Assembly: GCA_016183125.1 (NCBI GenBank)
Contig: JACPFG010000072.1
Span: 1 to 13,309 of the forward strand
Source of the DNA: Deltaproteobacteria bacterium
GTDB taxonomy: Bacteria; UBA10199; GCA-002796325; JACPFF01
Length of the DNA stretch: 13,309 nt
Reading direction: 5' to 3'
Of the stretch, positions 5,798 to 7,354 are shown piece after piece. The position numbers and the translations under genes are program-made. Under the pieces are notes generated by a model. It made no database searches, had not been told where the DNA came from, and saw nothing but the letters and a program-made list of their open reading frames with translations. Position 1 is the first letter of the stretch. The number at the start of each line of letters is the position of its first letter.

Positions 5798-7354
5798 TTA
5801 GTACATATCTCCACCGCCCGGCGGCATCGGTTGGTGTCCCTGCTTATCTTCCTTGGGCTGCTCGGCGATCATCGCCTCGGTCGTGATCATGAGTCCCGCC
5901 ACTGAGCCCGCGTTTTGCAGCGCGATACGCGCGACCTTGGTTGGATCGATGATTCCGGCCTGGAGCAGGTCGGTGTATTCGCCGCTCTGTGCATTGAAGC
6001 CAAACGCGCCCTTCCCTTCCTTCACGCGTTGGACAACGATTGCCCCCTCAACACCTGCGTTGCTGGCGATCTGGCGGAGAGGCTCTTCCAGCGCTCGTTT
6101 GACCAGGTTGACACCCCACTGCTCGTCGGCCTCGACCTTCAGGGTATCCAGGGTAGCCAGCGAGCGGATATACGCCACGCCCCCACCCGGGATGATCCCC
6201 TCTTCAACCGCAGCGCGTGTAGCGTGCAGCGCGTCTTCCACACGGGCCTTCTTCTCCTTGAGCTCCGTCTCGGTCGCCGCGCCGACGTTGATAACCGCCA
6301 CGCCGCCGACGATCTTTGCCAGCCGCTCCTGGAGTTTCTCCTTATCGTAGTCCGATGTGGTTTCCTCGGCCTGCGCCCTGATCTGCTTGACGCGTCCCTC
6401 TATATCCTTCTTGGTGCCGGCTCCGTCGACGATCGTCGTGTTGTCCTTGTCGACCGTGACGCGCTTGGCCTGGCCCAGGTCGGCAAGCTTGATGTCCTCC
6501 AGCTTGCGGCCCAGCTCCTCGGCCACCATCGTGCCGCCGGTGAGGATGGCGATATCTTCCAGCATCGCCTTGCGACGATCGCCGAAACCGGGGGCCTTCA
6601 CCGCGCAGACCTGCAGGGTCCCGCGCAGCTTGTTGACGACCAGGGTCGCCAGGGCCTCGCCCTCGACATCCTCGGCGATGATGAGCAGCGGCCGTCCCGC
6701 GCGAGCGATCTGCTCGAGCAACGGCAACAGGTCCTTCATGACCGAGATCTTCTTCTCGTTGATCAGGATGTAGGGATTATCGAACGCCGTATCCATCCGC
6801 GTCTCCATACCCTTCGCCTCTTCTACCGTGATGACCCCTTCCTTGCCGACCTTCTCCATCGCCTCGGCGATTATCGTGCCGATCGTCTCGTCGCCGTTGG
6901 CAGAGATAGTGCCGACCTGGGCGATCTCCTTGCGATCCTTCGTCGGCTTGGAGATCTTTTTCAGCTCGTCTACGACCCGCGCGGATGCCTTGTCGATCCC
7001 GCGCTTGAGCGCCATCGGGTTGTGGCCCGCTGCGACCAGTTTCGAACCCTCGCGAACTAGCGACTGGGCAAGCACGGTGGCCGTCGTGGTGCCGTCCCCG
7101 GCGACATCCGAGGTCTTGGAGGCGACCTCCTTGACCATTTGCGCCCCCATGTTTTGGAACTTATCAGCCAACTCGATATCCTTGGCCACTGTGACACCGT
7201 CTTTAGTGACGGTTGGCGCGCCGAAGGACTTCTCCAGGACCACGTTGCGCCCCTTCGGGCCGAGCGTGACCTTCACTGCATTGGCCAGGAGATCGACCCC
7301 TTGAAGGATCTTCTCCCGCGCATCCTGCTGGTAAATAATCTGTTTTGCCGCCAT
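5798..7354 (-). CDS. groEL: Chaperonin GroEL (Cpn60), 518 aa, with an in-frame deletion of about 24 residues at the equatorial/apical hinge
   Basis: Near-identical to canonical GroEL throughout ([44 protein letters not shown]...). The C-terminus ends [10 protein letters not shown]. Confidence 0.95.

Follow-up and report, generated by a model that had tools for sequence, protein, structure and literature searches.

The window, which is the whole 13,309-nt stretch analysed here, corresponds to a complete NCBI MAG contig that is gene-dense, has a G+C content of about 60% and contains no N letters. Its first part carries an SPFH/Band 7 gene, a small RF-1-domain gene (minus strand), a small ORF, an FHA-domain gene and a VapB/VapC pair. 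The middle part holds the gene for a 550-aa outer-membrane protein, groEL, groES and two DUF507 genes, all on the minus strand, and the last part comprises the genes for DAHP synthase, gap, pgk, tpiA and secG, followed by a Fic-domain gene whose start lies 9 nt from the contig end. This gene order is shared with two related loci, L001 and L083, the latter being 65-75% identical to the window locus at the DNA level. The shared synteny is kept across the junctions described below, and a cross-taxon chimera was therefore rejected. Compared with their relatives, gap, pgk, aroF, groES and the outer-membrane protein gene are intact and essentially free of gaps. Accessions close to it in the MBI2-MBI4 series come from JACP/JACQ/JACR assemblies, and JACQ/JACR records among these bear 'NC_groundwater' isolate names. 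From the accession series and the neighbouring records we infer that the contig comes from BioProject PRJNA640378, a groundwater project.

The groEL ORF (5798..7354, minus strand) encodes a 518-aa protein and was assigned from the ORF list, the match to the GroEL model TIGR02348 and an identical protein in NCBI, MBI2346376.1, titled 'MAG: molecular chaperone GroEL [Deltaproteobacteria bacterium]'. That protein forms a singleton cluster, the identical sequence occurring once, on a single contig. The TIGR02348 score of 779.5 bits lies well above the cutoff of 582.1, and the match falls into two stretches with profile positions ~185-207 unmatched. The gene occupies the canonical groES-groEL position inside a syntenic housekeeping block, with its partner groES immediately upstream (7376..7678, minus strand; 100 aa, MBI2346377.1). 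GroES is intact, covers positions 1-93 of the 93 in Pfam Cpn10 and is 70-77% identical to its relatives with no gaps. In GroEL itself, the equatorial ATP-binding motif is kept (A85-T93, AGDGTTTAT, including GDGTTT), as are G375 and the helix H/I residues L234, L237, L259, V263 and V264. The protein is 78-82% identical to its best-matching deltaproteobacterial relatives and 60-67% identical to GroELs of solved structure. Among 13 relatives we counted 284 invariant columns; the window protein keeps 280 of them, the four deviations all being conservative, and the relatives tested likewise show 1-10 deviations each. This bears out the view of an earlier note on this DNA that the remainder of GroEL is highly conserved. 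Since the deviation count lies within the range of the relatives, pseudogene decay or relaxed selection was rejected; the low count argues against an old pseudogene as well as against a paralog adapted to a new architecture. Judged from these columns, the intact conservation outside the gap would fit either a very recent event or an artefact.

Within this otherwise ordinary protein, exactly 24 residues (72 nt, in frame) are missing between T185 and R186. HMMER searches against PDB chains and NCBIfam GroEL models aligned GroEL as two stretches, the break falling at query residue ~185/186 opposite profile positions ~184/208-210. A MAFFT alignment of the window GroEL with 13 relatives and E. coli GroEL opened one gap of exactly 24 columns, corresponding to E. 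coli GroEL 186-209. At the DNA level, the blastn match to the syntenic locus L083 stops precisely at nt 6800, and 72 nt of L083 have no match. On the minus strand the junction occupies 6797..6802, where codon T185 (6802-6800) abuts codon R186 (6799-6797), as placed by MAFFT, the codons and blastn; in the codon view against the related loci L081 and L082 the DNA reads GGT ATG GAG ACG directly followed by CGG ATG GAT ACG GCG, with the break between 6800 and 6799. The alignment to GroEL profiles and reference sequences that the earlier note had called for thus does show the gap in the deposited sequence, and the note's estimate of about 24 absent residues proved correct. It was also right that the junction is in frame, but its site at 6778/6779 was 21 nt away from the true one. 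Its placement of the missing block at E. coli 197-216 gives way to 186-209, a block that includes the hinge-2 residue G192. Nor is RMDTAFD (6779..6799, minus strand) a shortened remnant of the preceding 11-residue segment, as had been proposed; alignments with relatives identify it as the intact homologue of RMxxxLE, the counterpart of E. coli 210-216.

The lost block takes with it hinge-2 G192, Y199, S201, Y203 and F204, together with the last intermediate-domain strand and the first apical strands; the missing part includes the VVEGMQFD strands. The absence of Y199, Y203 and F204, noted earlier, therefore holds, all three lying inside the 186-209 block. A continuous intermediate-apical connection with hinge 2 and Y199/S201/Y203/F204 is lacking in the deposited sequence. 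What had been described as an altered hinge and polypeptide-binding surface would, if the protein existed, amount to the loss of hinge 2 and of the Y199/Y203/F204 loop. In an AlphaFold model of the window GroEL, two stretches (171-187 and 356-367) had pLDDT below 50. P0003, a full-length control for which the same alignment was used, was equally poor, its pLDDT at the hinge also being below 50, with the weak stretches at 169-190 and 375-394. Foldseek matched the window model to GroEL chains with TM 0.55-0.58.

We searched for the same short form among relatives at several distances. In a search of 5.8 billion clustered proteins, all of the next-best full-length matches (119/119) were at least 537 aa long. 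In a 59-sequence alignment the block is present in 58 of 58 relatives and at least 90% conserved. A search centred on the junction returned as closest fragments P0121, P0122 and P0233, which are 87-89% identical around the gap and carry the whole block. Among GTDB representative genomes, there was no match closer than 75% and no relative with the gap. Close relatives naturally sharing the short form, the case that the earlier note had set against its own reading, were thus absent from the searches run, and a lineage-specific short form was rejected on the full-length, junction-centred and GTDB representative searches. Two unrelated metagenome GroEL fragments have different gaps nearby, P0127 lacking 19 aa and P0178 lacking 28 aa, indicating that sporadic holes of such a kind do occur in assembled GroELs.

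At least three further clean internal dropouts accompany the groEL gap on this 13-kb scaffold, and two of them disrupt reading frames. The first of these lies in tpiA (11356..12011, plus strand), whose N-terminal part (11356-~11550) is read in one frame and whose C-terminal part (~11551-12011) in another. Here 121 nt (40 codons + 1; 3n+1) are lost between ~11550 and 11551, and GHSERR with the catalytic His95 is gone. The Pfam TIM match is split between two frames, covering profile positions 2-62 in one and 106-244 (of 245) in the other; the N-terminal 64 residues are kept, and residues 65-104 are absent in comparison with the T. maritima TIM 1b9b and the TpiA of L083. The blastn match to L083 breaks at 11549/11586. 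The second lies in the gene for the small RF-1-domain protein, which resembles a peptide chain release factor (1152..1546, minus strand, ATG at 1546). The gene starts with MNWPVSPAK...RLGIR and then runs on in another frame, the shift falling between ~1476 and 1475. Aligned with nine homologues of 123-141 aa, it has lost 28 nt (9 codons + 1; 3n+1), including the conserved E-x-D-L-E-E-x-F-V before RSSGAGGQ, and Pfam RF-1 matches at profile positions 18-116 only. A programmed +1 frameshift as in prfB was rejected for this gene, because nine conserved residues are missing, which goes beyond a mere change of frame.

The fourth site lies directly upstream of groES, in the second DUF507 gene (7679..7923, minus strand). 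Its coding sequence is conserved up to LKRGVLEG (~7716) and is followed by 37 nt (7715-7679) and then the groES ATG, with no stop codon. Pfam DUF507 covers positions 94-163 of 182 in the window versus 95-182 in the complete L001 homologue. Four related loci, L001, L081, L082 and L083, have CIRCE or an inverted repeat resembling it, whose end lies 30-37 nt before the groES ATG; in three of them (L001, L082 and L083) a promoter-like TTGACT...TATAT can also be read upstream of groES. A scan of the window that allowed up to 3 mismatches gave no CIRCE, and the stretch between this DUF507 gene and groES has no promoter-like site. By comparison with these loci, about 150 nt appear to have been lost between ~7716 and 7715, comprising the last 19 DUF507 positions, the stop codon, a sigma-70-like promoter and CIRCE.

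Taken together, the four dropouts measure 28, 72, 121 and ~150 nt, and the three that fall in coding sequence are one 3n and two 3n+1. At each site, sequence common to every homologue is absent, the flanks are perfectly conserved and no Ns mark the place. Catalytic motifs survive in what is left of the genes: TpiA still has GNWKM and AYEPIWAIGTG, and the RF-1-like protein still has GGQ. Possible microhomologies were seen at two junctions, CGA in the RF-1-like gene and A/CA in tpiA. The flanks of the groEL gap share an imperfect 9-mer only (ATGGAGACG / ATGGATACG), of which both copies are kept, and the relatives L081 and L082 have no long repeat at the gap site. NCBI's numbering bears on two of the disrupted genes. 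The accessions of PIN, the outer-membrane protein, GroEL and GroES end in ...374 to ...377, that of aroF in ...379 and that of SecG in ...382, so that a single number remains for the pair of DUF507 genes and only two remain for the trio gap, pgk and tpiA. The numbering thus apparently leaves tpiA and one DUF507 gene without a protein accession, which suggests that the annotation pipeline treated both as non-functional.

An independent assembly offered a check on the deposited sequence. In the Logan assembly of run SRR12113422, the population was found only as two contigs of 966 and 2378 nt, 100% identical to window positions 11682-12647 and 3418-5795, respectively. The full identity shows good accuracy at the base level wherever there are reads, and the shortness of the contigs suggests low, patchy coverage. 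Neither of the two contigs crosses or reaches a junction. Exact look-ups with GroEL, PGK, the first DUF507 protein and the small histone-fold-like ORF returned no record, and only SecG and PIN gave Logan contigs. In the presumed source project, each filter was assembled separately with MEGAHIT, and the scaffolding function of IDBA-UD was then applied (PMC7906910). Local assembly errors have been described in metagenome scaffolds from IDBA-UD and other assemblers (Chen et al. 2020, PMC7111523).

We consider it likely, at a probability of roughly 75%, that the GroEL gap is a silent mis-join in a low-coverage scaffold, an artefact and not a feature of the chaperonin that the organism makes. The real gene would in that case encode a canonical GroEL of ~542 aa. 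The argument rests chiefly on the company that the gap keeps: because no fewer than three other dropouts lie on the same scaffold, and two of those break the frame, an assembly error is the most likely origin of the groEL one too. One deposited sequence alone shows the anomaly, none of the relatives does, and the scaffold combines several independent, functionally implausible lesions in random frame. Of the specialised paralog, population variant and collapsed assembly offered in the earlier note, the third is therefore favoured, if taken broadly to mean an error of assembly or scaffolding; collapse of a repeat was rejected, and a specialised paralog is not supported.

As to how such a sequence could arise, the 13.3-kb sequence would be a scaffold of about five short contigs parted by coverage gaps and linked by read pairs. 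Where the estimated distance between two contigs was zero or negative, the next contig may have been appended or trimmed with the overlap unchecked. In the IDBA path assembler, a negative distance would cause the next contig to be added from an offset, and the assembler is not known to verify the overlap. The true inter-contig sequence, and sometimes contig ends too, would then vanish without leaving a run of Ns. A lone chimeric read bridging a coverage gap would be an alternative of the same class. Such joins would fall in random frame, the groEL one happening to be in frame and those in tpiA and the RF-1-like gene breaking the frame, and the fourth would remove a gene end along with the groES promoter and CIRCE. 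As the groEL join is in frame, NCBI annotated a 518-aa protein. Blind joins account better than repeat collapse or slippage for three features: the dropout sizes, the random frames and the absence of flanking repeats of any consequence. Both a deletion mediated by repeats and a k-mer collapse were rejected, since no repeat long enough flanks the gap and both copies of the imperfect 9-mer survive.

Two observations sit less easily with an assembly error. The groEL join keeps the frame perfectly and its flanks align cleanly, just as they would after a real in-frame deletion. Moreover, four errors in 13 kb is far denser than the 13 per 1.13 Mb quoted in PMC7111523, so that unusually low coverage would be required. 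We therefore weighed the possibility that the deletions are real and recent, and that the sampled population, or a sub-population that the assembler chanced to follow, carries a broken operon, having lost 72 nt in groEL, 121 in tpiA, 28 in the RF-1-like gene and the groES promoter. The clean junctions free of Ns in the deposited sequence would agree with this, and so would the short microhomologies at the RF-1-like and tpiA junctions, of the kind seen in deletions by illegitimate recombination; the loss of promoter and CIRCE from the groES-groEL operon would fit a silenced copy. A GroEL without hinge 2 and the Y199-F204 loop would, however, be non-functional or poisonous, so that intact copies elsewhere or relaxed selection would be needed. 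As the comparison with L001 and L083 indicates, the whole syntenic block is the standard locus of the organism and does not look like a redundant duplicate. One candidate for a second, canonical groEL of the same MAG, P0011 (MBI2344290.1), sits in the intact syntenic block L083 (JACPFF010000027.1), and its accession number is 2,086 below that of the window GroEL; as the number in the window locus tag HYV03_05745 would make this roughly the 1,149th gene of its genome, we assigned P0011 to the preceding MAG in the batch. Further against real deletions, four independent lesions would have to have become fixed within 13 kb of core housekeeping genes with no excess of substitutions, with all remaining catalytic motifs intact and with the neighbouring gap, pgk, aroF, groES and outer-membrane protein genes untouched, and tpiA and groEL are normally indispensable. 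We hence regard a set of real recent deletions as unlikely.

Far less probable still is a specialised GroEL that functions in spite of lacking residues 186-209, through a remodelled intermediate-apical hinge and an altered surface for substrate and GroES binding. Mutations of the Y199E/Y203E/F204E type also impair GroES binding. A functional variant would account for an in-frame deletion in a protein whose remainder is highly conserved, with GDGTTT, the helix H/I residues and the linkage to groES all present. Yet the form is absent from all relatives at any distance sampled, the missing residues are conserved to at least 90% across 58 of them, and no compensatory changes are seen near the junction or elsewhere. 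The block holds Y199, S201, Y203 and F204, which are needed for substrate binding, their mutation severely impairing it (review PMC3268035). AlphaFold gave no confident rescue of the hinge, the full-length control being as poor, and the protein scores far under the cutoff for the chlamydial GroEL2/3 families. Nor can adaptation explain the dropouts that break the frame of tpiA and the RF-1-like gene on the same scaffold. Given the canonical syntenic position, the lack of extra divergence, the lack of any short relative and the three other dropouts, a specialised paralog is unsupported. We likewise give scarcely any credence to the 72-nt deletion as a real allele from which the organism makes a GroEL whose intermediate domain is fused directly to apical residue 210, without hinge 2 and the Y199-F204 loop. 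If that were true, the product might act as a regulatory or dominant-negative subunit, or as a chaperonin that opens by another mechanism, and a GroEL working without hinge 2 and the 199-204 loop that binds substrate and GroES would challenge the textbook mechanism.

Returning to the mis-join as the preferred explanation, MBI2346376.1, labelled as an ordinary GroEL in NCBI nr, very probably carries a 24-residue hole made by assembly. Silent dropouts can then occur every few kilobases in low-coverage MAG scaffolds, and those that happen to be in frame get through annotation and pass unnoticed into protein databases, alignments and training sets. The value of the present case is a warning about database quality.

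The case can be set beside several known systems. The local assembly errors of Chen et al. (PMC7111523), which are defined by a region that no read supports perfectly, likewise produce incomplete or incorrect protein-coding genes; here, several sites lie on one scaffold, and with 4 sites per 13 kb they are packed far more densely than in their example. As a protein, the window GroEL resembles the canonical group I GroEL of E. coli (TIGR02348; PDB 1AON/1OEL) in its ATP site, helices H and I and linkage to groES, but lacks the equivalents of residues 186-209 and has a short GGM tail. Chlamydial GroEL2 and GroEL3 (NF038370, NF038369) are natural divergent GroEL paralogs with altered functional residues. 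Against these two models the window protein scores 173 and 224 bits, with cutoffs of 600, and apart from the gap it is a standard, groES-linked GroEL. Engineered apical-domain point mutants such as Y199E, Y203E and F204E (Fenton et al. 1994, as cited in the review PMC3268035) hit the same residues and are described there as impaired in polypeptide binding. In contrast to those single substitutions in an intact fold, the deposited window GroEL has lost the whole 24-residue segment and the hinge with it.

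The gene order secG-tpiA-pgk-gap-aroF-(DUF507 x2)-groES-groEL, followed by a gene for an outer-membrane protein of about 550 aa, is common to related deltaproteobacterial MAGs, and two of the loci compared with the window, L001 and L083 (JACPFF010000027.1, 5210-15924), carry every gene of this syntenic block intact. Although the GroEL encoded in L083 (P0011, MBI2344290.1) has an accession near that of the window GroEL, it seems to be part of the preceding MAG of the batch.

In the window, tpiA (11356-12011, forward strand) is split over two frames at a junction at about 11550/11551. 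About 121 nt are missing, corresponding to residues 65-104 and including the catalytic His95, and the NCBI accession numbering of the contig apparently has no place for a protein from this gene. The peptide chain release factor-like gene (RF-1 domain, GGQ; 1152-1546, reverse strand; junction at about 1476/1475) lacks 28 nt, which shifts the frame and removes nine conserved residues ahead of RSSGAGGQ; its GGQ motif has no in-frame start codon upstream. The second DUF507 gene (7679-7923, reverse strand) is missing its 3' end, comprising the last 19 profile positions and the stop codon, and reads into groES. Neither a CIRCE operator nor a promoter-like site was found for the groES-groEL operon of the window. 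At the corresponding site, a CIRCE or CIRCE-like repeat is present in all four relatives (L001, L081, L082 and L083); in three of them (L001, L082 and L083), TTGACT...TATAT can also be read as a promoter-like sequence.

Directly beside groEL in several relatives lies the gene for the 550-aa protein (4047-5699, reverse strand; "hypothetical" in NCBI), which shares 54-68% identity with its counterparts in L081, L082, L001 and L003. Pfam returned only a weak Alginate_exp match, with Porin_4 faintly matched in the L081 counterpart; these weak matches suggest a beta-barrel outer-membrane protein. Between this gene and an FHA-domain gene, a pair encoding a VapB-like antitoxin of the ribbon-helix-helix type together with a PIN-domain toxin (3394-4031, forward strand; stop and start codons overlapping) sits as an insertion. 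A 67-aa ORF (1665-1868, forward strand; MSDVLVVASKVKQYIKG...), which may be similar to small histone-fold/DUF1931-type proteins, gave no Pfam match at E <= 0.01. The Fic-domain protein (12524-13300, reverse strand; HPFxDGNGR motif) has its start 9 nt from the end of the contig, and this end may cut off its N-terminal region.

At its C-terminus (5798-5830, reverse strand; …MPPGGGDMY), the window GroEL has an unusually short GGM tail, and close relatives bear tails of the GGMGGMGGM type. Since tail length differs between relatives, the short tail is probably natural. Contig L085, from an independent Logan assembly of run SRR12113422, ends 3 nt past the groEL stop codon. Two unrelated metagenome GroEL fragments, P0127 and P0178, have internal gaps of 19 aa and 28 aa, respectively, in the same apical-entry region, with differing gap boundaries, so this contig is not alone in showing a sporadic hole in an assembled GroEL gene.
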